Positions 3,709 to 38,302 are shown, counted from the stretch's first letter. The stretch is 64,000 nucleotides of DNA from an uncultured Gemmatimonadota bacterium (GCA_964518305.1 CAZFDK010000002.1:44392-108391), one strand, 5' to 3'. Program-made: numbers and translations. Notes: generated by a model not told the origin, from the sequence alone.

Positions 3709-3711
3709 TCC

Positions 3712-6221: not shown

Positions 6222-7586
6222 TCAGGCGTGGACGGGCCCGGCGCGGCTCCTTCCGGCAGCGAACGCACGGAGACGCTCCGGCCCCACCGGCTCCTTCGGC
6301 ATCCAGGGGGCGAGCGCGACCCGCTCGGCGTGCTCCCCGCGCACGGCCTCGATCTCCGGCACCTCGCGGTGGGCGCGCTCCACCAGCAGCGGATCCGACG
6401 GTCCCGCCGCGGCGAGGCTCTGGTTGACGACCCACGCGTAGGGCGTGATGCCGGCCCGCCCCACGGCGTCCGTGACGTGGGCCGCCGGGTCGGTGGTGCT
6501 GAGCAGCACGTCCTCTCCCCGCGAGGCCAGCTCGACCGCCACGGAGGCGGCCACCGTCGTCTTGCCCACGCCTCCCTTCCCCATCACTGTGATCAGCCCG
6601 CGGCCCTCGTCCGCGAAGCCGTCGACCAGGTCGCGGAGGCTCGGAAGGTCGATCCCGGGCGGCCCCTCCGGGCGCCTCGCCGCGGTGGACTCCGGCTCCC
6701 GCTCCTCCGAGAGCAGGCTCCGGAGCGCGTCGAGTCCCACGAGGTCGTATCCCTTCAGGGGGACCGTCTCGCGTGGAAGGTCGGCCAGGACGTCCGGCAT
6801 CGCGTCAAGGGCCTCCTCCCCCCGCCGATCCATCGCCCGGGCCAGAGGGTCGGCGGGGTCCCGCGACCGGAAGACGCCGTTGACGACGAGCCGCTGATTC
6901 GTAATGTCCAGGTCGCTCAGCGCGCGGCTCGACCGCGCCGCCTCTTCCAGCGCCGCCCCCTCCGGACGACTGACCAGCACGAGGGTCGTCCGCCCCCCGT
7001 CCCGCAGCGCCTCCACGGCGGCCGTGTACCGCTCCCTGTGGGCCTCGAGGCCCGACGCCGGGCCGAGGCAGGACACTCCCTCCGGGTTCTCCTCGATGTA
7101 GTCGCTCCAGGCCGCGGGCAGCTCCAGAAGACGGAGCGTGTGGCCCGTCGGGGCGGTGTCGAACACGACGTGGTCGAACGCCGCGGCGGAGCCCGCGTCG
7201 GCCAGGAACCGGGTGAACTTGTCGAAGGACGCCACCTCGGTCGTGCAGGCCCCGGAGAGCTGCTCCTCCACCTGCTCCACCGCGTCGTCGGGGAGAACAC
7301 CCATCATCGGATCGAGCACGCGCTCGCGGTACTCGTCCGCCGCCTCCTCGGGGTCGATGTTGACGGCCGAGAGGTTCGGCACGCTCTCCACGGGCGCCGC
7401 CTCGCTCCCCACGGGCGCCTCGAGCACCTGCTCGAGGTTGGAGGCCGGATCGGTGCTCACGAGCAGCACCGGGCGGCCCGCGTCGGCCAGGTGCACGGCC
7501 GAGGCGCAGGCCAGCGACGTCTTCCCGACGCCGCCCTTCCCGGTGAAGAAGAGGTACCGTGTCGGCTCGTTCAAAAAGGAGAGCAT
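6222..7586 (-). CDS. arsA: ArsA arsenite-stimulated ATPase with an internally truncated second half
   Basis: MLSFLNEPTRYLFFTGKGGVGKTS..DTAPTGHTLRLLELP (A1 complete). The A2 P-loop VMGKGGVGKTTVAASVA..STTDPAAHV joins directly to RAGITPYAWVVNQSL. The protein is 454 aa, against about 580 expected. ATG at 7586. Confidence 0.8.
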   Translation of the reverse strand: MLSFLNEPTRYLFFTGKGGVGKTSLACASAVHLADAGRPVLLVSTDPASNLEQVLEAPVGSEAAPVESVPNLSAVNIDPEEAADEYRERVLDPMMGVLPDDAVEQVEEQLSGACTTEVASFDKFTRFLADAGSAAAFDHVVFDTAPTGHTLRLLELPAAWSDYIEENPEGVSCLGPASGLEAHRERYTAAVEALRDGGRTTLVLVSRPEGAALEEAARSSRALSDLDITNQRLVVNGVFRSRDPADPLARAMDRRGEEALDAMPDVLADLPRETVPLKGYDLVGLDALRSLLSEEREPESTAARRPEGPPGIDLPSLRDLVDGFADEGRGLITVMGKGGVGKTTVAASVAVELASRGEDVLLSTTDPAAHVTDAVGRAGITPYAWVVNQSLAAAGPSDPLLVERAHREVPEIEAVRGEHAERVALAPWMPKEPVGPERLRAFAAGRSRAGPVHA

Positions 7587-7618
7587 GGGCTCTTCCTCCT
7601 CATCGTCGACGGACACGC

Positions 7619-8428
7619 TCACGCTCCGCCCTTCCTGAGCTGGTCGGCGAAGGCGTCGGGGAGATCGCTCTCCTCGATCCCGCGGGCCGCCCGCTCCACG
7701 TCGTACTCCACGCGGACGTGCTCCACGCCCCAGCCGTTTGCGTTCCCCGCCCCGGTCTCCTTTTGGGTGCCGGGCGCCTCCAGCAGCACGTAGCACGCGC
7801 GGGGATCCCCGTCCTTCGGGCGCCCCACGGACCCGGCGTTCACGAAGCGCATACCGTCGACCACCCGCGACCACGGAACGTGGGTGTGCCCGAAGAGGAT
7901 CGCGTCCCCCTCGGTCAGGCCCGCCCGCTCCGCCATATCGCGACAGAAGTCGTCCGACCGGTCCTCCGTCCAGTACAGCGTGTTGCGGGTGGGAGCCCCG
8001 TGCACCAGCGCCAGCCGGGGACCGGCGGTGTGTCCGCCGAAGGGCTTCAGATCGATCCGGAACGGGAGCCCCGCCAGCCGGCGGCGCGTCTCCGCGGAGA
8101 CGTGTTCCCGGGTCCAACCGTAGCTCTCACCCGAGAGGGCCTGCTGCTCGGGGTCGTCGTAGCGGCAGCCGCAGTGGTCGTGGCCCGTGGCCACCGTGGA
8201 GTCGTAGTTTCCGGCGATGCCGGGGACGCCCCGCTCCTCCAGCAGCGCCACGACCCGGTCCGGCCACGGCGCGTAGCCCACCAGGTCGCCCAGGTGGTAG
8301 GCGGCCGTCACCCCGCGCTCCTCCACATCGGCCAGCACCGCCTCCAGCGCCGGCAGGTTCGCGTGGACGTCCGAGATCAGCGCGTAGCGGACGGGCCCTC
8401 CCCCGTCGCGATCGTGGGAAGCCGCCAT
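7619..8428 (-). CDS. Metallophosphoesterase (YfcE/MJ0936-like)
   Basis: ALISDVHANL..HLGDLVGY..GNYD..LFGHTHVP motifs. The ATG at 8428 overlaps the arsM stop (ATGA). Confidence 0.7.
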   Translation of the reverse strand: MAASHDRDGGGPVRYALISDVHANLPALEAVLADVEERGVTAAYHLGDLVGYAPWPDRVVALLEERGVPGIAGNYDSTVATGHDHCGCRYDDPEQQALSGESYGWTREHVSAETRRRLAGLPFRIDLKPFGGHTAGPRLALVHGAPTRNTLYWTEDRSDDFCRDMAERAGLTEGDAILFGHTHVPWSRVVDGMRFVNAGSVGRPKDGDPRACYVLLEAPGTQKETGAGNANGWGVEHVRVEYDVERAARGIEESDLPDAFADQLRKGGA

Positions 8429-9315
8429 CACGCCCCCGGCTTGCGGGCCCGGACGAAGGCGGCCATCAGCCGCCCGTCGATCTCCTCCGCCACCTCGTCC
8501 GGATCGAGCCCGGCGTCCTCGATGAAGGACGCGGCGTCCCCGGCGGAGTAGACGCGGGTCGGCTCCACCTCGATCTCGCCGAAGCCCGCCTCCGCCAGCA
8601 GGCGGCGGTACTCGTCCTCCTCCAGGGCCCCCGCGACGCAGCCGGCCCACAGCTCCATGTTCCGGCGGATGGCCTCCGGGACCGGGCCGCGGACCACCAC
8701 GTCGGACACCGCGAATCGGCCGCCGGGCCGCAGGACGCGGAAGGCCTCGGAGAGGACCTGCTCCTTGTCGGCCGAGAGGTTGATGACGCAGTTGGAGATG
8801 ATCACGTCGACGGAGGCGTCCGGGAGCGGGAGGTCCTCGATCTCCCCCTTGCGGAACTCCACGTTCCCGGCCCCCGCCTCCCGGGCGTTCTGCCGCGCCT
8901 CCTCCAGCATCTCGTCGGTCATGTCGACGCCGTAGACCCGGCCCTCGGGCCCCACCCGGCGGGCCGAGAGCAGGACGTCGACGCCGGCCCCGGAGCCCAG
9001 GTCCAGCACCGTCTCGCCCTCCCGCAGCTTCGCCAGCGCCGTCGGATTGCCGCACCCGAGGGAGGCCTCCAGCGCAGCCGTCGGAAGGTCCTCGCGGTCG
9101 TCGTCGCCGTAGAGGCCCGAGGTGATTGGATCCCCGTCCTCCCCGGCACAGGAGCTTCCGGCATCGCAGCAGCCGCCTTCCGCCACCTGCCGCGCCGCAT
9201 CGCCGTACTTCTCCCGGAGCTGCTCCCGGAGCTGCTCGGACGTCTCGATCGCCTCGTCGCTCGACCTCCGCGGGGAGGAGGCGGCTCCGTCGTCGTCCGT
9301 CATATCAATCACCAT
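8428..9315 (-). CDS. arsM: Arsenite S-adenosylmethionine methyltransferase
   Basis: The SAM motif [12 protein letters not shown] plus conserved Cys residues ([24 protein letters not shown]) match ArsM. An alternative start lies at 9303. Confidence 0.8.
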
Positions 9316-9319
9316 TGAT
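9304..9319. promoter_or_regulatory. Perfect palindrome ATCAAT-CACC-ATTGAT (candidate ArsR operator) overlapping the arsM start
   Basis: Read directly from the sequence. It has the same 6-4-6 architecture as the site at 9714-9729. Confidence 0.5.
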
Positions 9320-9372
9320 GGGTTCGTCCAAAAAAAGGGAGAAGGAGCCCCGGCTCGTCCCGGCCGGGCGTG

Positions 9373-9699
9373 TCAGCAGCAGCGCCCGGCCGATTCCCCG
9401 GACGACGCGGCGCGGGCGAGCGCGTCCAGCTCGTCGCGGAGCGCCTCCAGGCCCTCCCGGTCCAGCGAGTAGTAGACCCAGCGGCCGTCACGCCGGTCGT
9501 TCACCAGCCCCGCCTCCTTCAGCGACTTCAGGTGGAAGGAGAGAAGGGACTGCCCCACGTCCAGAGCGTCCGTCAGGTCGCACACACATTGCTCGCCGTC
9601 GCACAGCATCTCGAGGATCCGGAGACGCTTGTCGTCCGACAGCGCCTGGAAGCGCGCGGACACGTCTCGGTCGGGGGCCGTAGGCGTCTTCGTGGTCAT
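9373..9699 (-). CDS. arsR: ArsR/SmtB-family metalloregulator
   Basis: LRILEMLCDGEQCVCDLTDALDVGQSLLSFHLKSLKEAGLV, with a C-terminal GRCC. Confidence 0.85.
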   Translation of the reverse strand: MTTKTPTAPDRDVSARFQALSDDKRLRILEMLCDGEQCVCDLTDALDVGQSLLSFHLKSLKEAGLVNDRRDGRWVYYSLDREGLEALRDELDALARAASSGESAGRCC

Positions 9700-15882: not shown

Positions 15883-18800
15883 TCAGGACGTGTCCGCCCG
15901 GCGCACTTCCCCCGCCAGGTGGTCGAGGACCGCCTCCACCACGCCGAACTCCTCCTCCAGGAGCCGAAAGAAGTCCTGCTGGCCGAGCACCAGGAGACGG
16001 GACGGCTCGACGCACACGGCGGTGTAGTGACGGGGCTTTTTGTCCAGGAGGCTGAGGCTCCCGATTGATTCACCCTCCTCGGCCACGAAGGCGAGGCGGT
16101 CCTCCTGGCGCGCCTCCACCGCTCCCGACGCCACCACGTACAGCTCGGCCGAGAGCTCGCCGGCCGCGAACACCTCCTGCCCCTCGGCGAAGCTTCGCTC
16201 CTCCATCAGGGCGGCCAGGCCCGCCAGGACCTCCGTCCGGAGGTCGGCGAAGAGCTCGGTCTGCCGCAGGATCTCGGCCCGCTCGGTGATCTCCACGAAC
16301 GTCTCCTCGTCAAGGTCAGCCAGGAATTCGGCGCGTCGGCCGCCGCCCGGGCCCAGCAGGGTGTCGCCGACGGCGGTGATCGCGCCCTCGCAGGCGCGCG
16401 CCGCGCTCGCCATCTCCCCGCGCCGCAGTCGGGCGAGCCCCCTCACCCAGGAATCCGTCGGGTGGGAGGCGAGCTCCTCCAGGGCCCCGTGGGCGGAGGG
16501 GCGCTCGATGCCGTACCGCTCGAGGGCGGCCCGCTCCCGGTCCGCCGGTCCCCTGTCCGGATCCACCAGGGGCGCCAGCCTCCGGCGCTGCTCGATCGGC
16601 AGCGCGTTCTCGAGCAGCTCCATGCCCCGCTGGCGGTCCAGCGCGTCGTCGGAGGTCAGCGCCGTGTACGCGACGTACAGGTCCTCCAGCGAGTGCCGCA
16701 GCCCCAGCACCCGCAGGGCCCGCTCCACGGCTTCCCGCTCCCGCTGGCGCAGCGTGCGATCCAGCAGGTCCTCGCCGTCCCCCGCCGATTCGGGCCCCGC
16801 CCCCGTGGAGACGTCCCGGAGCAGGGCCCACCGGAAACCGGAGCGGAGCTCGCGCCGGAGCTGGGGCGCGAGGTCGAGGTGCTCGAACTCCAGCTCCCCG
16901 CGGTCCCGGCGAATCTTGTCCAGGGTCCGCAGGATCTGGTACCGAACGCCGTGCGAGTCGACCGCGTCCAGGGCGTCCCACAGGCTCTCCACCGTGGACT
17001 GTTCGGCCTGCTCGTAGAGGACGCGGGCCAGCCTCTCCCTGGCCGCGGCGGACAGGTCCCCGTCGCCCAGGCGGGACGCCAGCTCGGAGTGGATCGCCGG
17101 ACAGAGGCTCCTCAGCCCTGTCCGGGCGGCGTCCCGCGTCTCGGGGTCCTCCAGCCCCCGGACCAGATCGGGCGCCAGCCCGCGGGCGTCCAGCGTTCCC
17201 GCCGCCCGCACGGACCGGCGGCGCACTCGGGCGTCCGGGTCCCGCACCAGGCTCTCCAGGACCTCCTCGCCGCCCGGCGGCAGGCGGCGCGCCTCCGACA
17301 GCAGCTCGGCCGCTTCCTCCCGGTCTGCCGGCCGCTCGGAACGGGCGAGACGCCGCACCCGGGCCATGCCCTCTTCCCGCTGCTCCTCGCGCCCGTACCG
17401 GAGGAGACAGCCCACCGCCGCCGTCCGCACCTCCCGGCGGTCGTCCTCCAGCAGGGCCTCCATTTCCCGGGCCGGGCCCCGCGGGCCGTGGTCGCATACG
17501 AAGTGGACGGCCTCCGTCCGGACTTCGTGGGAGGAGTCCCGGAGCAGGCGCCGGGCTTCCGGCAGGGCCTCCTCGGAGCCGATCTCGTAGAGCAGGGAGA
17601 GGGCTCGGGCGCGAACGCGTCCGGACGAGTGCCCCAGCAGGTCCCGGAGCTCCCCCTCCAGCTCCGCCGTGGGCGACTGCTCCAGCAGCGACAGCGCGTA
17701 CAGGACCTCGCGCTCGTCATCGCTCGCCAGCGCACCGCGCAGCTGCTCAAGCGTCGTCGCGTCGAGCTGCTCCACGATCAGCTCGTCCAGGTCCACGTCC
17801 CGGACCCCGATCAGCCGCTTCACCGAGTCCCGGAATTCGTCCCGCATCCGTACCGTGGCCGCGATCCACGCGACGAGCAGCAGGATCGAGAGCACCGCCA
17901 CCCCCCGGATCCCGAATCCGAGCCAGTTCGTGACGCCGAGCAGCAGGATCCCGGCCACCCCCGTTCCCCCGCGGTAGATCCCGAGATCGATGAGAGGCTT
18001 CGCCCGATACTTCACCTCCGACGGGACGGGCAGGAAGAGCAGCTCGCGCGTGGACTGGTCCAGCGAGTAGCGGAGCGCTCCGTCGGATCCCTTGGCCAGG
18101 GCGGCAGCCAGGAGTCCCGGTACCGCCAGCACTCCGCCGGTGGCGGCGAGCAGGGTCACCGGGAGAACGAGGAGCGCCACGCCGATCCCGAAGCTCCTGA
18201 GCACGAACGAGGTGAGGAACACCTGGATGGCAACGGACGCGACGTTCTGCACCGCGAAGAATCGTCCGAAGAACGCCGTCTTCGCGTCCTCGCCGGCCAC
18301 GTACATCTCCACGGCCCGGTTGAACTGCCAGTCGACGAGCGTGCTCACGACGATGGTCAGCCCGAGGATCAGGGCGACCGTCCTCAGGTGGGACGACTCC
18401 CGAACCAGGGTCAGTGCGTCGGCGGAGACGTCGTCCACGAGGCGAGCGTCCCCGCCCCCCCGGAGGCGGGGAAGAAGGAGGCTCACGATGAGCGCACAGG
18501 CCGAGAGGATCGCCGCAGCGACGAGGAGGAGAGCCTCGCTCCCCACCAGATCCGCCGCCAGGCCCGAGACGGCGCTCCCGGCCACGCCGCCGACCACGAG
18601 CCCGACGCCGATGGGTCCGAAGAGCCGCTTCGCCTGGCGGGTGGAGAAGAGCCTGTTGGCCACCAGCCAGAACTGGCTCATCAGGAAGAGCGGGTAGACC
18701 TTGCCGAACACGTAGAAGGCACCGGACGCCACGGTCCCCCCCACCCGGAGCCAGGCCCAGAACCCCACCAGCGACGCCCCCATGAGCCCGAAGGTGGTCA

Positions 18801-19071
18801 TCAGGAGCCGACCGGGCGCCGTGTCCTCCACGCGGCGCGAGTAGAGCATCACCGCGACGCTGACCACCACGGCCGTGAGGACGTAGACCCAGGGGAGATT
18901 CTCCGCGCCGACCCGGTCGATGAACACCGAGTTCCGGACCGGCTTGATGACGTAGTGGGAGCTGAGGGCCAGAAGGCCGTAGAGGAACATCAGCCCCGCC
19001 GGGACCAGCTCCTCCCGGCGCACGTCGGTGACGCTCCGCCACCACTCGGCCAGCGTGCCCCGAACGCTCAC
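15883..19071 (-). CDS. Fusion protein: Npt1/Npt2 (TLC ATP/ADP-translocase-like) MFS domain, HEAT repeats and a C-terminal cyclic-nucleotide-binding domain
   Basis: The N-terminal ~430 aa are polytopic (REELVPAGLMFLYGLLALSSHYVIKPVRNSVF). The middle has repeated ..D.VR..A...L.. HEAT units. The C-terminus is FAEGQEVFAAGELSAELYVVASGAVEA..GESIGSLSLLD (CAP-type cNMP fold). Confidence 0.65.
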   Translation of the reverse strand: MSVRGTLAEWWRSVTDVRREELVPAGLMFLYGLLALSSHYVIKPVRNSVFIDRVGAENLPWVYVLTAVVVSVAVMLYSRRVEDTAPGRLLMTTFGLMGASLVGFWAWLRVGGTVASGAFYVFGKVYPLFLMSQFWLVANRLFSTRQAKRLFGPIGVGLVVGGVAGSAVSGLAADLVGSEALLLVAAAILSACALIVSLLLPRLRGGGDARLVDDVSADALTLVRESSHLRTVALILGLTIVVSTLVDWQFNRAVEMYVAGEDAKTAFFGRFFAVQNVASVAIQVFLTSFVLRSFGIGVALLVLPVTLLAATGGVLAVPGLLAAALAKGSDGALRYSLDQSTRELLFLPVPSEVKYRAKPLIDLGIYRGGTGVAGILLLGVTNWLGFGIRGVAVLSILLLVAWIAATVRMRDEFRDSVKRLIGVRDVDLDELIVEQLDATTLEQLRGALASDDEREVLYALSLLEQSPTAELEGELRDLLGHSSGRVRARALSLLYEIGSEEALPEARRLLRDSSHEVRTEAVHFVCDHGPRGPAREMEALLEDDRREVRTAAVGCLLRYGREEQREEGMARVRRLARSERPADREEAAELLSEARRLPPGGEEVLESLVRDPDARVRRRSVRAAGTLDARGLAPDLVRGLEDPETRDAARTGLRSLCPAIHSELASRLGDGDLSAAARERLARVLYEQAEQSTVESLWDALDAVDSHGVRYQILRTLDKIRRDRGELEFEHLDLAPQLRRELRSGFRWALLRDVSTGAGPESAGDGEDLLDRTLRQREREAVERALRVLGLRHSLEDLYVAYTALTSDDALDRQRGMELLENALPIEQRRRLAPLVDPDRGPADRERAALERYGIERPSAHGALEELASHPTDSWVRGLARLRRGEMASAARACEGAITAVGDTLLGPGGGRRAEFLADLDEETFVEITERAEILRQTELFADLRTEVLAGLAALMEERSFAEGQEVFAAGELSAELYVVASGAVEARQEDRLAFVAEEGESIGSLSLLDKKPRHYTAVCVEPSRLLVLGQQDFFRLLEEEFGVVEAVLDHLAGEVRRADTS

Positions 19072-28662: not shown

Positions 28663-29367
28663 CTAGCGGACGTATCCCATGTCCCGGGCGTAGTCGGTGA
28701 GCTCCTCCCGCAGCCGCCGACGCGCCCTGTACAGCCTCGACTTCACCGTGCCGACGGGAATGCCGAGCGCCTCCGCCACCTCCTCGTAGCTCTGGCCGTC
28801 CAGGTCCACGAGCACCAGGGTCACCCGGAACTCGTCCCGGAGGCCCTCGACGGCTTCGACCACCTCGCCATCGATCATCTCGTCGAAGAAGGCCGCGTCC
28901 GGCCGCTCGAAGGGACCTTCGGCGTCCGGGAGGTCCGAGTCTCCATCGTAGCTGGATACGCCCTCGAGATCCTCGTAGGCCGCGGACTCGGGCCGGCGGC
29001 TGTCGCGCCGAAACCGGTTCACGAAGCAGTTCCGGAGGATGGTTCGGAGCCACGCGCCGCAGTTGGTGCCGAGCTCGTAGGTGTCCCAGGCCCGGAAGGC
29101 CCGAAGCATGGCCACCTGCACCAGGTCCTCGGCGTCGGCCTCCTCGCCGCCGGTCAGGCGGAGGGCGTAGCCGTAGAGGTCCTCCAGGTGGGGAATCGCC
29201 TCCCTGCGGAACTGATCCTTCTTGCGAGCCTCTCGGTCCGGTGCGTCGGCTCCTGCGGACACAACGTCGAGTGCGTGGCCGGAGCCGGCGGCTGGCGGAA
29301 TCGACTCGGCGGCGAGAGCTTCCATCGGCGTCCTCCCTCGTCTTGTCGGTGGTCCCATCGCTTCCAC
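28663..29367 (-). CDS. ECF-type sigma-70 family RNA polymerase sigma factor
   Basis: Region 2 DLVQVAMLRAFRAWDTY..GAWLRTILRNCFVNRFR and region 4 SYEEVAEALGIPVGTVKSRLYRARRRLRE. The start is uncertain (29367, 29358 or 29325). Confidence 0.8.
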   Translation of the reverse strand: MEAMGPPTRRGRTPMEALAAESIPPAAGSGHALDVVSAGADAPDREARKKDQFRREAIPHLEDLYGYALRLTGGEEADAEDLVQVAMLRAFRAWDTYELGTNCGAWLRTILRNCFVNRFRRDSRRPESAAYEDLEGVSSYDGDSDLPDAEGPFERPDAAFFDEMIDGEVVEAVEGLRDEFRVTLVLVDLDGQSYEEVAEALGIPVGTVKSRLYRARRRLREELTDYARDMGYVR

Positions 29368-29393
29368 CCGTACGTGGGAGCACGCCGCGTGCC

Positions 29394-29445
29394 GAAAGCT
29401 TATTTTCGTTTAACTCTATGTCGATCAACCTATTATAGAATAAGA
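29394..29445 (-). promoter_or_regulatory. AT-rich putative promoter of the ECF sigma gene
   Basis: An AT-rich island in GC-rich DNA. The minus strand reads TATAAT at 29437-29432. No convincing -35 element. Confidence 0.3.
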
Positions 29446-29507
29446 CGGCCCTCCGCGGACGGCACGAGAACTCGTGTACCACGACTAATCGTGACGAATA
29501 TTCGTGG

Positions 29508-31217
29508 TCAGTGGCGGAGGCCGGAGACCCGGTAACCGCGCTCCGGCCCCTGCCAGCTGAGCCAGACCACGGCGCGCCGTCCGCGTCCATCGGGCCGCTC
29601 GGCCCGCAGCTCCAGCCGGGCCAGCGCCTCCTCGTCGGACACCGCCTCGGCGTCCGCGAGCCCGGCGGTCGTGGAGAGCGGCACCGTGACGGACTGTCGC
29701 CGTCCCTCGCGGCCTCCCGTCTCGCCCGCCGCCTCGAGCCCCGCGGCCTCGTGGACGAGGCGCCACCGGTAGGTGGTCTCCTCCGCCCCCCAGGGTCCGT
29801 CGACGAGGCCCAGGTCCCGGAACGAGATCCGCAGCTCGTCCCCGGGGGCAGGCGAGGCCTCCACCTCGGGGTCCTCCACGGGGGTCACCGTCCCGTACCA
29901 GTACTCCACGACCCGGTCGCGCCGGTACTCCAGGATGTCGACCAGCGTGTCCGTGGCCGCCTCGGTGGGCAGACGCCCCGCCTCCACCGCGGCCTGGATC
30001 TGTTCGTCGGTGAAGGTGGCGACCAGCTTCGCCCCCCAGTAGCCGTCAGCGGGTGTCATCGCGTGATACGCCTCGTTGGGCCAGTTGGGCTTCCATTTCC
30101 CGGGGCGGAAGCTCTGCACCGGCAGCCACCCCACCGACGGGTAGATCGGAGCCCACTCCTCCCCCTCCCATCCCGCGCGGTAGAAGCCCAGCGTGACGAG
30201 ACGCTTCGTGGCGGCCCAGAAGTCTACCTGGTACTCGCGACCGTCGCGGGGAGAGTGAGGACGAATGCTCCCGCTGCCGAGCGAGGAGCCCATGTCGATC
30301 AGGTAGTGCCGGAGATACCCGGGGTCCACGTACGAGGCGAGCGTGTTCGCCCATCGGGTGTCCACGTTGTTCAGCCAGGCGGAGACCACGAACAGCCCCC
30401 GCAGTTCCCGCCGGTGCTGGTGGGTGTAGTAGTCGTTCGGATCGTCGCTCCGGGTGCCGCGGAAGTGCCACGGGCCCTTGGGGGTCCCCTCGACGAACCG
30501 GCTGCACACGGCCAGGTACCGACCGTTCGGGAGCTGGCCCGTGAGGTCCAGGAGCTCCCTCAGGTCCTCGCGCGTCATGGGCCGCTCGCCCCTCCGGGTC
30601 GTCACCCGCGCCTCCTCGGAGATCCGCAGGTTCTCCGGCCGGAACGAGACGAGAATGGTCTCGGGCACGTGGTACCCCGCCGCCCAGTAGAACCGGGAGG
30701 CGATCACCTCCGCCGAGGTGGCGAGATGGAAATGCTCCTCGGGGTCGAACTTGAGGATGTACCGCCTCCCCCGTGAGTCCTCCACCGTGAGTCCCGGCGT
30801 GACGCCCTGCGTCTTCGCGTCCAGCACCGTGATCCCCTCGCTCGGGTCCGGCCGGCTGGCGCCGGGCCCCCGGGCCACCTCCTCCGGGCTCATCCGCTCG
30901 CGGTCGTTTCGGTGCTCGAACCAGCTCGAGTTCACCACGTCGTCGAACCGCGTCAGATTCACAGCCGGGTGCTTCTCGCCGACCAGCTCGCGAAAGGAAG
31001 CGCCGTGGCCGATGCCCCGTGTGACGCGATCGAACTTGTCGTCGATCGACCCGCCACCCCGGGCGGCTGGCTCGGCCACGGCCGTCGTGTCCCCGTACGG
31101 GACAGGCTCGGGGCGCAGCGGCACCGGCTGCCTCCCGGCGCAGGCCGACGCGGCCAGGATCGTCCCGGTGGCCGCCAGCAGCGGCAGGAACCGCGCGACC
31201 GCCGGAAAGGCGGACAT
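29508..31217 (-). CDS. Secreted lipoprotein of unknown function with protein/lipid-kinase-like motifs
   Basis: Lipobox GTILAASACAG, plus RYILKFDP, LNNVDTRWANTL and YLIDMGSSLG motifs. ATG at 31217. Confidence 0.5.
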   Translation of the reverse strand: MSAFPAVARFLPLLAATGTILAASACAGRQPVPLRPEPVPYGDTTAVAEPAARGGGSIDDKFDRVTRGIGHGASFRELVGEKHPAVNLTRFDDVVNSSWFEHRNDRERMSPEEVARGPGASRPDPSEGITVLDAKTQGVTPGLTVEDSRGRRYILKFDPEEHFHLATSAEVIASRFYWAAGYHVPETILVSFRPENLRISEEARVTTRRGERPMTREDLRELLDLTGQLPNGRYLAVCSRFVEGTPKGPWHFRGTRSDDPNDYYTHQHRRELRGLFVVSAWLNNVDTRWANTLASYVDPGYLRHYLIDMGSSLGSGSIRPHSPRDGREYQVDFWAATKRLVTLGFYRAGWEGEEWAPIYPSVGWLPVQSFRPGKWKPNWPNEAYHAMTPADGYWGAKLVATFTDEQIQAAVEAGRLPTEAATDTLVDILEYRRDRVVEYWYGTVTPVEDPEVEASPAPGDELRISFRDLGLVDGPWGAEETTYRWRLVHEAAGLEAAGETGGREGRRQSVTVPLSTTAGLADAEAVSDEEALARLELRAERPDGRGRRAVVWLSWQGPERGYRVSGLRH

Positions 31218-31249
31218 CCACGCGCTGATCTCGGGACGGAATCGCCCGT

Positions 31250-32590
31250 TCACGGCTGGACCTCCACGCTCACCTGCACCCTCACTCCCTCGTCCCCGTC
31301 GGCGACGAACCAGCTGGCCAGCGGACCCGCCCGGCTGGCGACCCGCATGCCGAAGCCGTAGGAGGGTCGCCAGTCCGAGGAGGAGACCTCGGACAGCCGA
31401 CGGGCCACCATGCCTTCCTCGAGGAACAGGAAGGCGCCGAGACGGACGCTCTCGCGCGAATCGCGCCACAGCTCGTACCGGTATTCGGCGACGCCGGCGG
31501 CGAGATCGTGGCCCCGGAAGCGGTAGTCCGTATAGGCCCGGGCTCCGAGCTCGTCGCCCAGGCCCGCCAGGTGCGTGAAGGGCACGCCCCGTCCGCCGTC
31601 GGACCGGTTGAACTCGAGGCGTCCGCGGAGGACCAGGCTCTGCCGCATATCGATCGGAAGGTAGCCGTCCCCCCGCAGGCGGATGCGGTGGAAATCGGCC
31701 TCCGTCCCGGTCACCCCGCGGAACAGGGTCGACTCCGCCCCCAGCTCGACGCCCCGGGTCTGGAACAGACGCCTCCGGGTGAAGTCGAGCGCCAGCGAAC
31801 CGCCGGCGCGGACGAACTCCTTCGTGTCGCCGAGTCCGAACAGCTGTTCGGACGTGTACCGGGTCGTGATGTCCGGAACGGCCGGGTCGCCGCCGTCGGC
31901 CGCCTGGTTCTCCTCGTATCCACCCCGGACCCCCAGCCGGATCCAGGACCGCCGCAGCAGACCGAGCTCCGCGTCGCCCCCCCACTGGTCCCACTGGTAG
32001 TCCACGGCGTCCGAAGCGGGCGACGTGGGGCCGACCCCCCAGAACCGGGGCTGTGCCCACCGTCGGAACCAGCCCCGGACGACGAACCGCTCGCCGCTCT
32101 CCGGCAGCTGGAGCCATGCCTCGTGGCGCTGTGATCCGCTCGACGCGTACGCCGACCGGAGGTGAAGGGGCGCCCAGCGGTTCAGGTGGACCTTCGCAGC
32201 CGGCCCGCTCCGGGGCCCGACGGAGCCGACGCCGGGCGAGAGCCCCCAGGCCCGGAGATCGCGATAGGCCACCCTCACCGGCGAGGGAGGCCCCTCTCGC
32301 CCCACCAGGCTAAGGACACTCTGGGTACCCTCCCCCAGGAGCCGGAGGGGGAAGGTGGCCACGGTCCACGGGAAGGTCACCACGTCCACCCAGTCGGTGG
32401 GGGGTTCGGAGGGAGGACGGGCCGCAGTGTCTCGATCCACCGACTGCGCGCGAGCCAGCCCGGCCGGGACCGCGAGGGTCAGGACGGTCGCCAGGACGAG
32501 CGCTCCGCTGAGGCCCGGTTGGCTCCGGCAGCCGGGCCAGCGGGCCGCGCCGCCCGTCCCGGTCGTCTCCCCGTCACTCCCATCAGTCAT
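31250..32590 (-). CDS. Outer-membrane beta-barrel protein (Omp85/D15-like)
   Basis: Signal peptide ..ALVLATVLTLAVPAGLARA-QS, then alternating beta-strand-like segments rich in aromatic residues and Gly to the C-terminus. The ATG at 32590 overlaps the upstream MFS stop by 8 nt. Confidence 0.45.
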   Translation of the reverse strand: MTDGSDGETTGTGGAARWPGCRSQPGLSGALVLATVLTLAVPAGLARAQSVDRDTAARPPSEPPTDWVDVVTFPWTVATFPLRLLGEGTQSVLSLVGREGPPSPVRVAYRDLRAWGLSPGVGSVGPRSGPAAKVHLNRWAPLHLRSAYASSGSQRHEAWLQLPESGERFVVRGWFRRWAQPRFWGVGPTSPASDAVDYQWDQWGGDAELGLLRRSWIRLGVRGGYEENQAADGGDPAVPDITTRYTSEQLFGLGDTKEFVRAGGSLALDFTRRRLFQTRGVELGAESTLFRGVTGTEADFHRIRLRGDGYLPIDMRQSLVLRGRLEFNRSDGGRGVPFTHLAGLGDELGARAYTDYRFRGHDLAAGVAEYRYELWRDSRESVRLGAFLFLEEGMVARRLSEVSSSDWRPSYGFGMRVASRAGPLASWFVADGDEGVRVQVSVEVQP

Positions 32591-34031
32591 CGCTCGAATC
32601 CTGCTCCTCCTGCTCCGGATCCGCCGCTCCCGCCCCGGCTCCTTCTCCGACGTGGTCTTCGTTCGTCTCGGCGGTCATCCCGTCGCTCCGAGCCTCGAAC
32701 TCCTTCCCCAGGTAGCGGACGACCAGTATCCAGCTGCCGATGACCAGCAGCGAGGCGAGCGAGAACCAGCGGACGTGGATCACGGTCAGTGCGCTCAGGG
32801 CCAGATTCAGCCCCACGGCCACCACCTTCCCGAACCGCTGCACGAACATGTCGATGAACGCCTTGGCCTTGTATTTGGCGTCCCGGGAGGTGGGGGTGTA
32901 GAGGGCCTCCTTCGCGGACTGGTTGATCGAATAGTTGAGCGCGTTGTCGCCCACCCGCATGAAGGAGGCGAGGGCGAGCGACGGAACGACCAGGAACCCG
33001 ACGGAGCCCAGCATGGCCACGGCGGGCAGGAACAGGAGCCCGGCCCCGACGCCGAGGTTCCGAAGCACGTAGCTCGTGCCGAACAGCTGGACCCCGATCG
33101 AGACCAGCCCCGTGATCTGACCGATCCGGCCGAAGAACGCGTCCTTGGCCGCCCCCCCGGTGATCTGCTGCTCGACGATCACGCCGAGCTGGAAGTTCAT
33201 GATGTTCGAGACGAGTTCGTAGAGCCCGATCACCGCCGTGATGCCCAGCAGGTACTTCGACGCCAGCACCAGCTTCGCCCCCTCGATGGCGGCCCCGGCG
33301 CCCGGCTCCTCCGCCACCTTCGACTCGTCGTCGCAGTCCTCTTCCTCCTCCGGGCAGCAGGGCTCGTCCCGCTCTTCCTCCTCTCCGCGTCGCTCCCGGG
33401 CCCGCGCGTCGATCCAGTAGGCCAGGAGCACGATCACGGCCACCGGCACGAGCAATCCGACCAGCAGCCAGGCGCGCCCCACGTCCTGCACGAGGCTCGT
33501 GACGACAGTCGCGCCCACGAAGCCCCCGACCACGCCTCCCAGCCCCACGATCCCGTACAGCCTCTCGGCCTCCTCGGACGTCGTGATGTCGTTCGAAAAG
33601 GCCCAGAAGGTGGCCACCATGACCGTCGTCCAGATGTCGCCCGTCACGTACAGGGCCCACACCAGGGGCTCCGACGGAGCATGGATCCGGGTGGCGAACA
33701 GGAGGAACAGGGCCCCGAAGGCCAGGCTGAAGACGAGTATCACTCGCTGCCGCGGCAGCTTCCGGACCAGGACGGTGAACCCCACCACGACCGCGTAGGC
33801 CACGACCATGTTCAGGACCTTGGCGACCTCCTCGGCCTGCGCCCCGCTGAGCTGCCATCCGAAGAGCACCACCGGATGGTTGGCGAAGTAGTCCAGAAGC
33901 AGGCCCCGCTTCATCGGCTTCAGGACCCAGAAGACGGCGATCACCAGGAAGAAGAAGAGCGCCAGGCCCAGGGCGCGGGGCCACTCCCCTCTCCGGATGT
34001 CGAAAAAACGCTCTTTCAGTCGCTCGAGCAT
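32583..34031 (-). CDS. Npt1/Npt2 (TLC ATP/ADP-translocase-like) family MFS transporter
   Basis: MLERLKERFFDIRRGEWPRALGLALFFFLVIAVFWVLKPMKRGL. About 12 predicted TM segments. The central loop is EEEERDEPCCPEEEEDCDDE. Confidence 0.6.
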   Translation of the reverse strand: MLERLKERFFDIRRGEWPRALGLALFFFLVIAVFWVLKPMKRGLLLDYFANHPVVLFGWQLSGAQAEEVAKVLNMVVAYAVVVGFTVLVRKLPRQRVILVFSLAFGALFLLFATRIHAPSEPLVWALYVTGDIWTTVMVATFWAFSNDITTSEEAERLYGIVGLGGVVGGFVGATVVTSLVQDVGRAWLLVGLLVPVAVIVLLAYWIDARARERRGEEEERDEPCCPEEEEDCDDESKVAEEPGAGAAIEGAKLVLASKYLLGITAVIGLYELVSNIMNFQLGVIVEQQITGGAAKDAFFGRIGQITGLVSIGVQLFGTSYVLRNLGVGAGLLFLPAVAMLGSVGFLVVPSLALASFMRVGDNALNYSINQSAKEALYTPTSRDAKYKAKAFIDMFVQRFGKVVAVGLNLALSALTVIHVRWFSLASLLVIGSWILVVRYLGKEFEARSDGMTAETNEDHVGEGAGAGAADPEQEEQDSSDD

Positions 34032-34337
34032 GTGATCGCCGTCGGGCTTCGTTCGGCAGTCGTCGTCTCCGCCACGTTCCGCGGGTCACGCCCGCCGTCG
34101 CGTCGCGGGCGTCGCCGTCGGACCGCCCCCAGAACCCGGCCCCCTCGGCAATCGTTCCTGGTGCTCGCAAGAAGCCCGACCCGGCGTCGCCGAGCGCGCC
34201 GGAACGATGGCTCGACGTCTTCGATTGGTGGGACGCCACGGGCCCGCCCGCCGAAGAAGGAAGCGGCGCCCCCATCGGGCGACGGCCCCGGCGCCCCGGA
34301 GCTCACCGATTCAGATCGCCCGTGCCACCTCGCTGCC

Positions 34338-35777
34338 ATGAGAGCGAAGCTCGTCAACCGCTGGCGGAGAATCCGATCCAGCTACTGGCTCATCCCGGCC
34401 CTCCTGACCCTCTCGGCCGTGGCCATGGCAGCTCTGGCTCACCAGGTGGATCAGTCCATCGCCGCCGGGCGCCTGAGCCTCGGTCTCCTCGCCTACGGTG
34501 GAGGCGCCTCGGGGGCGCGTGCGATTCTCAGCACGCTGGCGGGGTCCATGATCACGGTCGCGGGCGTGGCCTTCTCGACCACGATGGTGGCGCTCGTCCT
34601 GGCCTCCTCGGAGTTCGGACCTCGCCTCCTGGAGCACTTCATCCGCGACCGGGGAAATCAGGTGGTGCTGGGGAGCTTCATCTGCACCTTCCTGTACTGC
34701 GTGCTCGGGCTGCTCGCCGTGCGCGGGACCGACGCCGCCTTCGTCCCCCGCTTCACGGTCAACCTCGGCATCCTGCTGAGCGTGGTGAGCGTGGGCCTCT
34801 TCATCTACTTCATCCATCACGTGATCCAGCTCATCCAGGCACCCAACGTCGTGAGCCGGGTGGGACAGCGCCTGGACGCCTGGGTCGACGGGCTCTTCCC
34901 CGACCTGCACGAGCACGAGCTCGGCGCGGCGGCGCGGGCACCGGTCGGAGAGGCCCGGACGGGGGTCGCCTCGCCGGCGCGTCCCTCCGACCACCTGCCG
35001 GAGTGGTGCGGAGCCGGACGGAACGGGTCGCCGGAAGCCCCGAGCTCCCGCTCCCTCGAGGCGGACCGGAGCGGCTACCTGCAGACTCTGGATCACGACC
35101 ACCTCGTACAGGTGGCCGAGGGGCGGCACCTGGTGGTCGAGCTCCGGGTCCGGCCGGGGGACTTCCTCCGGCCCGGCGACGAACTGGCACTCCTCCACTG
35201 CGTCCGGATGCCGGACGACGACCCGCGGGACGAACTCGACCAGGCCTTCGTGCTCGGCGACCAGCGGACGCCGGCCCAGGATCCGGAGTTCGTCGTGGAT
35301 CAGCTCGTGGAGCTGGCCGTTCGCGCCCTCTCGTCCGGCACCAACGACCCGTATACGGCCATCAACTGCATCGATCGCCTCGGAGCAGCGCTGGGGCGCG
35401 TGGCACGCAGGCCCCCTCCCCCGGAGCGCGTCCGTGGCCCCGGCGGACGCATCCGTCTCCTCCGGGATCCCATCGACTTCCCGGAACTCGCCTGCGCCGC
35501 CCTCGATCCCATCCGCGAGTACGGCCGTGGACACTCGGCCGTACTGATCCGGCTCCTGGACACCGTCGGCGCGCTCTCCGGCCAGGCGCGGCGGCCCCCG
35601 GCGCTGTCCGAGCTCCGGTGGCACGCGGAGAAGATCGTCCGCTCGGGCCAGGAGGGGATCCCGGAGGAAACGGGGGTCGCCTCGCTCGAGAGCCGCTTCA
35701 GGCGGGTCCGGCAGCGCATTCGGGAGCGGGAGGAAGGGATCGAGGTGTCGAGTACGGGACCCGAGGCCGGAAAATAA
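34338..35777 (+). CDS. DUF2254-like membrane protein
   Basis: The N-terminus RRIRSSYWLIPALLTLSAVAMA is followed by 4 TM segments and a soluble C-terminal domain. ATG at 34338. Confidence 0.5.
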   Translation: MRAKLVNRWRRIRSSYWLIPALLTLSAVAMAALAHQVDQSIAAGRLSLGLLAYGGGASGARAILSTLAGSMITVAGVAFSTTMVALVLASSEFGPRLLEHFIRDRGNQVVLGSFICTFLYCVLGLLAVRGTDAAFVPRFTVNLGILLSVVSVGLFIYFIHHVIQLIQAPNVVSRVGQRLDAWVDGLFPDLHEHELGAAARAPVGEARTGVASPARPSDHLPEWCGAGRNGSPEAPSSRSLEADRSGYLQTLDHDHLVQVAEGRHLVVELRVRPGDFLRPGDELALLHCVRMPDDDPRDELDQAFVLGDQRTPAQDPEFVVDQLVELAVRALSSGTNDPYTAINCIDRLGAALGRVARRPPPPERVRGPGGRIRLLRDPIDFPELACAALDPIREYGRGHSAVLIRLLDTVGALSGQARRPPALSELRWHAEKIVRSGQEGIPEETGVASLESRFRRVRQRIREREEGIEVSSTGPEAGK

Positions 35778-36014
35778 TTCGGCCTCGGGGAGCAGCCCTC
35801 GACCGGGACGCGACGCGCTCGACGGCTCAGAACGCCGATCTGACGGGGCATTTCGGCCTCGCCGGGAACGTACGTATGACGATTGCAATTATTGAGACGA
35901 CGGCGGGAAACCGCCACGGGGGGTCACCCTCGTACGACTCGAGCCGGAGGCACCGAATCTTGTGGGCGTATGGTTCGACCTCCATCAACGGCGTGTGCTG
36001 CAGGGAGGCACTCG

Positions 36015-36365
36015 ATGGGACTGTCCTTTACTGATCGACAGCTCGACCTGATGAACATCCTCTGGGACGATGGCTCGGCCACCGTCCGCGAGGCCAAGGA
36101 GGCCCTGGACGAGGAGCTCGCCTACACGAGCGTTCTCACGGTCTTCCAGACGCTGGAGAAGAACGGACACGTTCGACACGAGCCCGAGGGCAAGGCCTAC
36201 CGCTACTATGCCACCGTGAGCCGCGAAGAAGCCGGTCGCGAGGCCGTCTCCTATCTCAAGCGTCGACTCTTCCAGGGCTCGGCCGAGGCGCTGACCGAGA
36301 CCCTGCGGGAGGAAACCCGGGAGACGCAGGTCGACGAGGAGGAGCCGACCGAGCTGGAGGTCTGA
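36015..36365 (+). CDS. BlaI/MecI/CopY-family transcriptional repressor
   Basis: LSFTDRQLDLMNILWDDGSATVREAKEAL..LAYTSVLTVFQTLEKNGHVRHEPEGKAYRYY. ATG at 36015 preceded by GGGAGG. Confidence 0.75.
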   Translation: MGLSFTDRQLDLMNILWDDGSATVREAKEALDEELAYTSVLTVFQTLEKNGHVRHEPEGKAYRYYATVSREEAGREAVSYLKRRLFQGSAEALTETLREETRETQVDEEEPTELEV

Positions 36366-36406: not shown

Positions 36407-38302
36407 TCAGCGTGCCCTGAAGATCACGATCCGGGCCCGGGCGCTGGCGGAGAGCGCGTTGTCGGCCTGGTCGGTGAGCCGCACCTCGAGCTCTGGAGTC
36501 GAGCCGCTGGAGGAGAGCGTGAAGTGCTTCCCGGGGCCGGGACGGACCTCGAAGTCCGTGCCTCCGTCGGTGAAGCCGGTCTCCACGGGGTTCAGCGGGT
36601 ACTCCCCGAACCGCCAGCCGGATCTGTTCGCCGCCAGCTCGCGGTACATGTCCCGCAGGTCCCAGGTCGGGAGAATCCGTTGGCCATCGGCGGCGTCCAC
36701 GTCGTCATCCACCGCCAACATCACGGCGAAGTCGGCCAGCAGGTCGTCGAAGCTCGCCCCGGTGACCTCCTCCACGTTCTCGATCCCGGTGCTGAGCCCG
36801 CCGTCGGCCTGGGCCAGGTCCCGGATGAAGCCCTCCTCCCCCGTGCTCGGCACCGCGCCCTCGCCCACCGACGCGTACTGATCCGCCAGCCAGCGGGCGA
36901 AGAGCCACCCGAAGCCCCGCATCTCCAGCGACTGCAGCCCATCGGGGTCCGAGGTGGCCAGCGCCCTGGTCGTCGGCACGCTGTCCATGAACGCCCCTGC
37001 GTTGAAGAAGTCGTTGAAGAGATAGGTATCGAACGTCTGTGAGCCGGAGCCGGCCGTCGCCTCGTAGGTAAGGTTCGAGCGTACGGAGGCCCCGTACGCG
37101 GCCAGGCCCACGACCTCCTCGGCCAGGTGAGAGAGGGCCTCGCTGAGCCACGTCGTCTCGAAGGGGCCGAAGCCGGTCGTGTTCTGCTTGATCACCCGGT
37201 TCGCGGCGTTGAGCAGGTGCTGGAGCTCGTGCGACGAGACGGAGAAGGCGTTGCGCTTCGCCCTTTCCGCCGAGGTGGGGGTGCCGTAGTCGCCGTTCGG
37301 GTCCGGGGAACGCAGGTACAGGAGCTCCGACTCGTTGGAGGCGGCGCACACCCTCTCATCCGAACCCGTCCCCTCGTCGTCTCCCGATTCAGCGAGGTCG
37401 TTCGGGACGAAGAAGCCGCCCACCCGCGTCCGTCCGTCGGCCGGATCGAGCTCGTTCACCTTCGGCGTGAACAGGATGTAGACGTGGTCATTGCCATCGA
37501 TGTCGGTGGGAGAGCCGAAGTAGGCGCTGTCCACCGGGACCACGAGCGTGTCGAAGGTGGCGGCGATCTGCTGAAAATCCGTGCTCGAGAAACCGCCGAG
37601 GCCACCCACGCTCGGCTCCGGCGCCGCCGTGTCCTGCACGATGATCGCCCGCTCGCCCACTTCCTTCACCTCGGCCGTCACGGTCCGGGCGGAGGCGGTG
37701 TCGCACGGGGTGTCGAAATCCTGCTGGGCCGCGAACCAGAACTGAATCCGATCTCCAGCGTCCGGGACCGTGTTGGTGGGTACCCTGGAGCTCAGGCGGA
37801 TGTCGCCGCCCGAGCTCACATCGGAGTCCGCGTGTCGCGTCGGGCTGATCCCGCGGCGGACGAGGAGGTCGCGGGAGCTCTCCCGGATCTTCCGGCGGAT
37901 CATCAGGTCCCGCGCCCGGGGCGGCAGGTCGACACCGGCGCCGGCGGCCCGCCGGCTCGACGAGACTGATCCGGAGCCCGAGCTCCCGTCGCCCCGGGTG
38001 AGCCGCATGGGGATCAGGCCGGGGGATCCCGCGTCGGCCGACTGAACGGCCAGACGGTACTCGCGTCCGCTGGAGGCGGAGGGAAGCCGAAGGGCCAGCA
38101 CCTCGCCGTCGGCGGTGAAGGTGGTCGACTCGCCGACGTTCAGCCCCACGTCCTGTACGGTGACGCTGCCCCCGCCGTCGCCGGGTTCCATCGGGTCCTG
38201 CCCGTCCCCGCCGCAGGCGAGAACCAGCGAGACGGTCGCACCGAGGATCACCGCGCCGAGTTCGGAGGGTCGGACGTGTCCGGTGCATGCGTTGGACGTC
38301 AC
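36407..38302 (-). CDS. Lipoprotein with an HExxH zinc-metallopeptidase motif
   Basis: Lipobox VSLVLACGG, then FSVSSHELQHLLNAANR with a downstream LSEALSHLAEE. Confidence 0.45.
   Translation of the reverse strand: MTSNACTGHVRPSELGAVILGATVSLVLACGGDGQDPMEPGDGGGSVTVQDVGLNVGESTTFTADGEVLALRLPSASSGREYRLAVQSADAGSPGLIPMRLTRGDGSSGSGSVSSSRRAAGAGVDLPPRARDLMIRRKIRESSRDLLVRRGISPTRHADSDVSSGGDIRLSSRVPTNTVPDAGDRIQFWFAAQQDFDTPCDTASARTVTAEVKEVGERAIIVQDTAAPEPSVGGLGGFSSTDFQQIAATFDTLVVPVDSAYFGSPTDIDGNDHVYILFTPKVNELDPADGRTRVGGFFVPNDLAESGDDEGTGSDERVCAASNESELLYLRSPDPNGDYGTPTSAERAKRNAFSVSSHELQHLLNAANRVIKQNTTGFGPFETTWLSEALSHLAEEVVGLAAYGASVRSNLTYEATAGSGSQTFDTYLFNDFFNAGAFMDSVPTTRALATSDPDGLQSLEMRGFGWLFARWLADQYASVGEGAVPSTGEEGFIRDLAQADGGLSTGIENVEEVTGASFDDLLADFAVMLAVDDDVDAADGQRILPTWDLRDMYRELAANRSGWRFGEYPLNPVETGFTDGGTDFEVRPGPGKHFTLSSSGSTPELEVRLTDQADNALSASARARIVIFRAR

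Follow-up and report, generated by a model that had tools for sequence, protein, structure and literature searches.

What is an inner-membrane nucleotide carrier doing beside an outer-membrane barrel and a lipoprotein with kinase-like motifs? The question is raised by three adjacent genes in a 64,000-nucleotide stretch of DNA from an uncultured Gemmatimonadota bacterium (hereafter the window, in which all coordinates are counted; G+C content about 70%). A first-pass annotation of the window had proposed that the three genes encode an envelope-spanning module, in which the carrier supplies nucleotide to an extracytoplasmic kinase-like enzyme served by a dedicated outer-membrane channel. We followed up this proposal by profile searches, structure prediction and comparison of neighbourhoods, and modelling and conservation indicate that the lipoprotein is very probably a catalytically active member of the kinase superfamily, the first of a family hitherto without annotation. 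The three genes, referred to below as g1, g2 and g3, are:

32583–34031, minus strand: g1, inner-membrane carrier of the TLC/NTT family, 482 amino acids.
31250–32590, minus strand: g2, POTRA-less ("noNterm"-type) outer-membrane barrel of the Omp85 superfamily with a signal peptide, 446 amino acids.
29508–31217, minus strand: g3, lipoprotein of an unannotated protein-kinase-like family, 569 amino acids.

Searches of Pfam and NCBIfam placed g3 in no family, the sole match being to HipA_C (E 0.015; 15.3 bits against a cutoff of 30.5; residues 137–198), and searches of the PDB by sequence, whether with the single sequence or a profile, gave just spurious matches to armadillo-repeat and IgA-receptor proteins. 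The protein nonetheless has at least 977 homologues, which are called "hypothetical" wherever they are named, the named ones coming from Gemmatimonadota. A profile search of 1.84 billion representatives delineated a family that comprises 3251 clusters (50% identity), of which 1050 have E ≤ 1e-30, with annotated relatives labelled Rhodothermales, Acidobacteriota and Omnitrophota. Its predicted parts are:

31140–31217, minus strand: signal peptide and lipobox, residues 1–26 (...ILAASA-C26).
29883–30920, minus strand: protein-kinase-like core, approximately residues 100–445, from Foldseek and weak HipA profile matches.
29511–29882, minus strand: C-terminal Ig/FN3-like beta-sandwich, residues 446–569, from Foldseek and an all-beta prediction.

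The lipobox had been recognized in the first-pass annotation and is present as AASAC; its n-region, h-region and A-S-A-C26 conform to a lipobox pattern of the PROSITE type, and Cys26 is kept in 120 of 120 close homologues and in 68% of distant ones (conservation was counted here and below over 270 family members, 120 close and 150 distant). The core that follows is predicted with high confidence to adopt a protein-kinase-like (PKL) fold. An AlphaFold2 model of g3 computed from 76 diverse sequences reached a predicted local distance difference test (pLDDT) score of 92.1 and a predicted template-modelling (pTM) score of 0.92, an earlier run with 34 close homologues having left the catalytic region at a pLDDT of 69 and the Fam20C matches marginal. 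Comparing this model of the 569-residue lipoprotein with the PDB using Foldseek, the check that had been suggested for the kinase proposal, returned kinase-like folds as the matches to the core. The best was to PI4KII-alpha (4hnd_B; E 8.3e-4, probability 0.96), and others were to Fam20C (4kqa and 4kqb), Hydra Fam20, HipT (7ab3), PINK1, VPS34, Rio2 and AAK1/BIKE; among the 50 PDB matches listed, all are PKL folds or C-terminal sandwiches bar a few stray ones of low probability. The C-terminal 125 or so residues match FN3, Ig and Asf1-type sandwiches with Foldseek probabilities of 0.99–1.0. The predicted order of secondary structure is likewise kinase-like, running from beta1-3 through alphaC and beta4-5 to alphaE, the catalytic loop, beta7-8 and the DFG position, and sub-threshold matches to HipA_2 (in 9 of 76 members) and HipA_C (in 7 of 76) are colinear with the N-lobe and the catalytic loop.

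Three motifs of g3 had originally been singled out as standing in the order expected of a kinase, namely RYILKFDP (residues 152–159), LNNVDTRWANTL (282–293) and YLIDMGSSLG (305–314). On the predicted fold they indeed occupy the positions of the beta3 lysine, the catalytic loop and the DFG motif, and they are no chance strings, their key residues being 95–100% conserved. Together with a candidate glycine-rich loop, the putative active site comprises:

30792–30815, minus strand: glycine-rich-loop equivalent K135-x-x-G138-x-x-P141-G142, between predicted beta1 and beta2.
30750–30752, minus strand: K156 of RYILKFDP, equivalent of the nucleotide-anchoring lysine of beta3, in a strand predicted at residues 152–157.
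30345–30362, minus strand: catalytic-loop equivalent D286-x-R-x-x-N291, with the family consensus W-L-N-H-x-D-x-x-x-x-N.
30288–30296, minus strand: DFG equivalent, here D308-M-G310, with the family consensus HYLIDFGxxLGS.

Conservation extends across all four elements. Residues K135, G138 and G142 of the loop are found in 99–100% of close and 90–97% of distant members (per residue across the sets, 93–99%, 97–100% and 90–99%, respectively), and K156 in 98% of both. D286 is kept in 100% of close and 97% of distant members, N291 in 100% and 95%, and D308 in 100% and 97%; position 309 is phenylalanine in 89–94% and G314 is present in 100%. In one member (P0232), the HipA_2 profile aligned to the catalytic-loop region itself. 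Further residues are invariant in a family-specific manner: H266, R270, R273, D262, D391, W394 and R432. The equivalent of the alphaC glutamate is E170 in the window protein (30708–30710) and is present in 72% of distant members; position 170 marks a lineage-specific change within an otherwise invariant active site. An active enzyme is favoured because the catalytic residues are 95–100% conserved over the 3251-cluster family.

The weak similarity to HipA_C and HipA_2, together with the structural match to HipT, could instead indicate an exported HipA-like toxin or defence module. This is barely credible, as no antitoxin, HipB-like or immunity gene is present, g3 is single-copy and syntenic with housekeeping genes across the phylum, and the protein carries a lipoprotein signal and an FN3-like domain. 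With no relevant PADLOC match, the defence or toxin reading was rejected.

If g3 is an envelope enzyme, which of the neighbouring proteins is its true partner? The product of g2 had been described as having a signal peptide and the character of a beta-barrel, and both features were borne out: the signal peptide ends ...AGLARA/QS, and residues 198–424 match Pfam Omp85 (PF01103) with 33.6 bits, above the cutoff of 24. The match to NCBIfam Omp85_fam (4.9e-12) is under the cutoff of that model, and the BamA equivalog model, whose cutoff is 297 bits, gives 27.6. Neither Pfam nor NCBIfam detects a POTRA domain in g2, and just 50 or so residues separate the signal peptide from the conserved barrel region, for which reasons we assign the protein to the "noNterm" class of Omp85 proteins. 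A loop-6-like YRFRGHD and a beta13-like FLFLEEG are recognizable as variants of the (V/L)RG(F/Y)-type and FxDxG lid-lock motifs and are conserved as RFr(G/D) and Flf.d.G, or F-x-(D/E)-x-G, among 43 homologues, a comparison made at the level of sequence. The C-terminus in the window (31250–31270) reads ...VSVEVQP, whereas the consensus of the family has an aromatic residue at its end (…w.f), as is usual for a beta-signal. The notion of a dedicated outer-membrane channel finds no support in this assignment, as a POTRA-less Omp85 protein belongs to a family of insertases and translocases rather than diffusion channels. The function of POTRA-less Omp85 proteins is unknown, and some of them are paired with lipoproteins (PMC11358297).

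The partnership was assessed in two sets of loci, 79 from Gemmatimonadota genomes and 80 from metagenomes harbouring distant members. The neighbourhoods of the former were compared by tblastn and clustering of neighbours, the latter came from a metagenome scan with a 10-sequence sub-alignment of the family, and gene counts were based on hidden Markov models. In 69 of 69 informative Gemmatimonadota loci and 59 of 59 distant ones, or 128 of 128 altogether, the gene immediately upstream of g3 and in the same orientation encodes an Omp85 protein. The invariant unit is thus the Omp85 protein plus the lipoprotein and not the trio. The whole pair is also tandemly duplicated in four loci (L054, where the copies lie at 2102–5160 and 6775–9671, and L076, L101 and L157), from which it follows that the Omp85-lipoprotein pair duplicates as a unit.

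The carrier behaves differently. Among loci with at least 1.5 kb on both flanks (49 from Gemmatimonadota and 23 distant), a TLC carrier gene lies within 3 kb in 15 of 49 and 13 of 23, respectively (31–57%), with a density of 0.09–0.17 per kb in the first kb beside the pair and of zero past 5 kb. Orthologues of g1 itself adjoin the pair at considerable evolutionary distance: one 53% identical stands beside it in a Rhodothermales operon (L084), and others, 38–43% identical, adjoin it in metagenomic loci (L115, L121 and L158); an orthologue 67% identical is on the opposite strand in L031. In about 12 Gemmatimonadota loci, such as L080, the carrier is a TLC-HEAT fusion of 750–1100 amino acids whose gene overlaps the Omp85 start, and in L084 and L091 a TLC-HEAT gene and a short TLC gene stand in tandem. 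Gene order varies, from TLC-Omp85-g3 in the window to Omp85-g3-Metallophos-TLC-TLC/HEAT in Rhodothermales and Omp85-g3-TLC in Omnitrophota. Chance adjacency of the TLC gene is ruled out by the distance profile, the linkage of orthologues across phyla and the gene fusions described below, and the carrier is an accessory yet strongly linked partner, not a universal one. The expectation that the trio would be conserved together thus held for two of its genes across phyla, the third standing beside the pair in about one third of Gemmatimonadota and one half of distant loci. A further frequent partner, overlooked in the first-pass annotation, is a secreted metallophosphoesterase of lipoprotein type, encoded in 18 of 49 Gemmatimonadota and 5 of 23 distant loci and, when present, always within the first kb.

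Natural fusions provide a second view of which parts belong together. In a g3::Omp85 fusion found in two assemblies, a signal peptide and the kinase-like domain precede the whole barrel protein. A TLC::g3 fusion, from two independent assemblies, retains a complete lipoprotein signal peptide at the junction (RWRVRAR-hydrophobic-GC), and in L083 it is followed by the Omp85 gene and then by a metallophosphoesterase gene. A GT4 glycosyltransferase is joined through a transmembrane (TM) segment or lipobox to g3 in two assemblies, and a g3::PAP2 phosphatase fusion was observed a single time. Assembly artefacts are ruled out for three of these four fusions, each of which occurs in at least two independent assemblies, the PAP2 form having been seen once. 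The fusions physically tie the kinase-like domain to both the carrier and the barrel. Judged by the lipobox and by the TLC, GT4-TM and PAP2 fusions, the kinase-like domain is on the periplasmic side.

The universal pairing with Omp85, and a fusion in which the passenger is N-terminal to the barrel as in PlpD-type proteins, would also be expected of a type-V-like export pair. Here the POTRA-less Omp85 protein would translocate or display g3 at the surface, either in trans as in two-partner secretion (TPS) or, when fused, in cis as in type Vd PlpD. The targets of the enzyme would then lie outside the cell, among molecules of the environment or of a host or prey, with the carrier loosely related, for example as an importer of nucleotides released outside. 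Leptospira offers a precedent, in that POTRA-less Omp85 genes also precede lipoprotein genes there and a TPS-like export has been proposed (PMC11358297). We nevertheless consider an export pair unlikely. Neither a POTRA nor a TPS domain is detected with Pfam and NCBIfam, an enzyme of kinase fold at the surface would be without a nucleotide source, and the domain is anchored to the inner membrane in the TLC:: and GT4-TM-lipoprotein fusions; the enrichment of TLC genes and their fusion to g3 would go unexplained.

Can g1 then be regarded as a nucleotide carrier? Its first-pass description as an Npt1/Npt2 (TLC)-like protein agrees with a match to Pfam TLC (PF03219; TCDB 2.A.12) of 86.6 bits against a cutoff of 21 (E 2.2e-24) and with homology to the solved ATP/ADP carriers 9j3j (plastid, AtNTT1; E 2.4e-13) and 9j3n (bacterial; E 6.8e-10); Pfam MFS_1 is matched with E 7.9e-11. 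When g1 is aligned to these two carriers, the stretches FWxF(A/S)N..T..EA and KE..Y.P...K.K.KA.ID are kept, a correspondence at motif level only. The protein is of the short type lacking a HEAT domain, with some 10–12 hydrophobic segments in a crude hydropathy scan and an acidic central loop at about residues 210–250. By these profile and alignment scores, g1 is a bona fide member of the TLC family from a distant subfamily, far from the characterised exchangers. The Npt-like paralogue noted elsewhere in the window is also real:

15883–19071, minus strand: paralogue with TLC, HEAT repeats and a cyclic-nucleotide-binding domain (Pfam), 1062 amino acids.

As TLC-HEAT genes are an operon partner in other lineages, this protein, encoded 10 kb away, may be a second carrier for the same system. 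TLC carriers are counter-exchangers of adenine nucleotides (PMC1951785).

These properties allow the parts to be assembled into a tentative mechanism. To our knowledge, all PKL-fold catalysts depend on a nucleoside triphosphate, no supply of which is known in the periplasm; we infer from this that nucleotide would be provided by the g1 carrier. We give somewhat less than an even chance to the resulting proposal, in which g3 would be active in the periplasm as a nucleotide-dependent phosphotransferase that receives its nucleotide from the carrier. Its Omp85 partner would dock it at the outer membrane or otherwise handle it. The adjacent TLC counter-exchanger would move ATP out and the product ADP, possibly with inorganic phosphate, back. 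Removal of the modification or recycling of phosphate would fall to the metallophosphoesterase, whose place is taken by PAP2 in a single fusion; candidate substrates would be the head group of an envelope lipid or glycan, or an outer-membrane protein. The broader proposal, that in several diderm phyla TLC/NTT carriers export ATP, g3 phosphorylates or nucleotidylylates an envelope component and the metallophosphoesterase erases the mark, is possible although doubtful. Set against the module as first conceived, the kinase-like fold, the conservation across phyla and the enrichment and fusion of TLC carriers have stood; the trio is not the conserved unit, and a channel role for the barrel is unsupported.

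Several results weigh against a carrier-fed phosphotransferase. The TM-scores of the g3 model in Foldseek are just 0.2–0.38 with E values of about 1e-3, which amounts to superfamily-level similarity, and no kinase Pfam model scores above threshold, the best being HipA_2 with 22.6 bits against a cutoff of 27 among the family members. On the NTP/NDP exchanger model of NCBIfam (TIGR00769), which has a cutoff of 387.2 bits, the carrier reaches 84.9, and in 43–69% of loci a TLC carrier is not in the immediate neighbourhood. PamNTT1, a characterised relative of g1 and an electroneutral exchanger, favours the import of ATP and suppresses its export (PMC1951785). The idea of nucleotide supply to a kinase leaves, by itself, the role of Omp85 unexplained. 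Finally, position 170, the alphaC glutamate of the window protein, is glycine in 67% and aspartate in 26% of close Gemmatimonadota homologues.

The loss of this glutamate in most close homologues is, along with the obligate pairing, what might be expected if g3 were a non-catalytic accessory lipoprotein of a specialised Omp85 insertase, comparable to BamB-E or LptE, with its fold serving as a scaffold or ligand sensor and the TLC linkage reflecting shared regulation only. Pseudokinase scaffolds are common in the PKL superfamily. Such proteins, however, usually lose the very residues that are retained here, as Lys156, Asp286, Asn291 and Asp308 are 95–100% kept at an overall identity of about 30%, and the carrier fusions and the linkage of orthologous carriers across phyla favour a metabolic link. 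We therefore hold a purely accessory role to be very unlikely.

A scavenging route would reverse the direction of transport. In this alternative, the metallophosphoesterase and g3 would act on nucleotides or phosphoesters outside the cell or in the periplasm, and the products would be taken up by the TLC carrier, in the direction canonical for NTT proteins. Metallophosphoesterase genes are indeed a frequent partner, and periplasmic metallophosphoesterases include nucleotidases such as UshA and CpdB. Characterised TLC carriers, moreover, import nucleotides (PMC1951785, PMC5381601). Scavenging is quite unlikely all the same: a kinase-fold enzyme with conserved phosphotransfer residues would be superfluous and would itself need a phosphoryl donor, Omp85 barrels are not known to serve as channels for nutrients, the neighbourhood has no conserved TonB-dependent receptor, porin or ABC binding protein, and the phosphoesterase is missing from more than half of the loci.

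How does a periplasmic phosphotransferase with its own barrel and carrier compare with systems already described? The components each come from known superfamilies, and the kinase-like family and the four-part envelope module appear to be undescribed. With the HipA/HipT, PI4K type II and Fam20 kinases of the Pfam clan PKinase, g3 shares a predicted bilobal fold, glycine-rich loop, beta3 lysine, D-x-x-x-x-N and DFG-type aspartate, and it can be likened to both Fam20C, which is located outside the cytosol, and PI4KII-alpha, which is lipid-anchored. It is set apart from HipA, PI4K and Fam20 by its low similarity (best profile scores of 15–23 bits against cutoffs of 27–30, TM-scores of 0.2–0.38), by the invariant motifs DDPND-x3-HEHRRELRG, DGYWGAK and RRD, and by its lipoprotein signal, FN3-like C-terminus and obligate Omp85 partner, neither the motifs nor the latter traits being known in those kinases. 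A parallel in arrangement, offered as an analogy only, is found in the eukaryotic secretory pathway, where an ATP/ADP exchanger of the endoplasmic reticulum feeds lumenal kinases such as Fam20C. Common to both would be an exchanger that feeds a kinase-fold enzyme in a compartment where no ATP is made; the carrier family is unrelated and the membrane system is different.

The barrel resembles the noNterm Omp85 proteins in the classification of Heinz and Lithgow, including Leptospira LIC12252/54/58 (PMC11358297), in being a POTRA-less, 16-strand barrel with an adjoining lipoprotein gene and in its loop-6 and beta13 lid-lock-like motifs. The Leptospira partners, compared here without implying orthology, are DUF1566/Big-domain lipoproteins encoded downstream of the barrel gene (PMC11358297), whereas the lipoprotein described here is a kinase-like enzyme that remains paired with its barrel across phyla and has TLC and phosphoesterase genes as further neighbours. 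As in type Vb and type Vd (PlpD) systems, a barrel of the Omp85 family is encoded with, or fused C-terminally to, an enzyme passenger; the differences are that no POTRA or TPS domain is detected, that the passenger carries a lipoprotein signal and that forms of it exist which are joined to proteins of the inner membrane. Both g1 and the NTT-HEAT paralogue of the window, with its cyclic-nucleotide-binding domain (cNBD), fit the NTT/TLC transporters of free-living bacteria (Major et al. 2017, PMC5381601). NTT and NTT-HEAT(-cNBD) genes are documented in such bacteria with function unknown, and that survey mentions no link to Omp85 or kinase-like genes of the kind seen at the g1 locus (PMC5381601).

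Full-text literature searches on kinases of the periplasm or otherwise outside the cytoplasm, and on periplasmic ATP in connection with kinases, returned nothing comparable, so that the earlier statement that no system of such composition has been described agrees with the literature searched. In the textbook view, the periplasm is devoid of ATP, and processes in the envelope draw their energy from the inner membrane or from pre-activated donors. The recurrence of g3, with its conserved kinase-like active site, beside a putative nucleotide counter-exchanger, and at times fused to one, makes that assumption directly testable. The module also supplies a first concrete hypothesis on what NTT genes do in free-living bacteria, a question that dates back to 2017 or earlier (PMC5381601), gives POTRA-less Omp85 proteins a defined and obligate partner, and, through g3, defines a large family of the kinase superfamily (3251 clusters) that has no Pfam or NCBIfam model. 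Were the proposed mechanism true, it would constitute a bacterial counterpart of the kinase arrangement in the eukaryotic secretory pathway, assign a physiological role to NTT genes in free-living bacteria and break the rule that no ATP-driven chemistry takes place in the periplasm.

Two further neighbourhood patterns were noted across the loci. In nine of them (L004, L006, L008, L015, L023, L026, L040, L075 and L080), two genes for membrane-anchored Hanks-type Ser/Thr kinases lie directly upstream of TLC-HEAT on the same strand, and L083 has a Pkinase gene (614–1849) and an FHA-sigma54 activator nearby; the Ser/Thr kinase genes beside the TLC-HEAT operons may represent a regulatory link. The fused variants in L081–L083 are flanked by genes for a fatty-acid hydroxylase and LMF1/DCC1-like membrane proteins. 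Together with the GT4 and PAP2 fusions, these lipid-related genes are weakly suggestive of a lipid or glycolipid substrate.

In the window itself, the surroundings of the three genes are as follows:

32583–32590, minus strand: overlap of 8 nucleotides between the g1 stop and the g2 ATG.
34338–35777, plus strand: gene for a DUF2254 membrane protein, upstream of the operon and on the opposite strand to it.
34032–34337: interval separating the divergently oriented g1 and DUF2254 genes, presumed to contain the operon promoter.
35883–36365, plus strand: gene for a BlaI/Penicillinase_R-type repressor, after the DUF2254 gene.
28663–29367, minus strand: gene for an extracytoplasmic function (ECF) sigma factor, downstream of g3.

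The tight linkage of the three minus-strand genes was confirmed in every particular. The 8-nucleotide overlap is real, since no start other than the ATG at 32590, which is preceded by AGGAG, would preserve the signal peptide of g2; the next one in frame is codon 51. The overlap suggests translational coupling of g1 and g2. After the g2 stop at 31250, a gap of 32 nucleotides leads to g3, whose reading frame is open from 32117 and whose conserved protein begins at the ATG at 31217. The overlap, the gap, the opposite-strand gene upstream and the 140-nucleotide spacer followed by the ECF gene downstream make g1-g2-g3 a compact three-gene operon. A pattern scan of the operon found no sigma-70 promoter or consensus, and terminator-like sites at chance level only; the operon boundaries were drawn from gene arrangement alone, and the promoter role of 34032–34337 is likewise presumed. 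Beyond the repressor gene, the minus-strand interval 36407–38302 encodes a 631-amino-acid protein that matches no Pfam family at E ≤ 0.001 and is, to judge from its lipoprotein-like N-terminus (LVLACGG), another uncharacterised exported protein. On the other side of the operon, the interval 29368–29507, which separates the g3 stop from the gene for the ECF sigma factor, is unusually A+T-rich and contains CACGA...TCGTG inverted repeats and a TATAAT-like string, and it is probably the sigma factor's own promoter/operator or the terminator of the operon.

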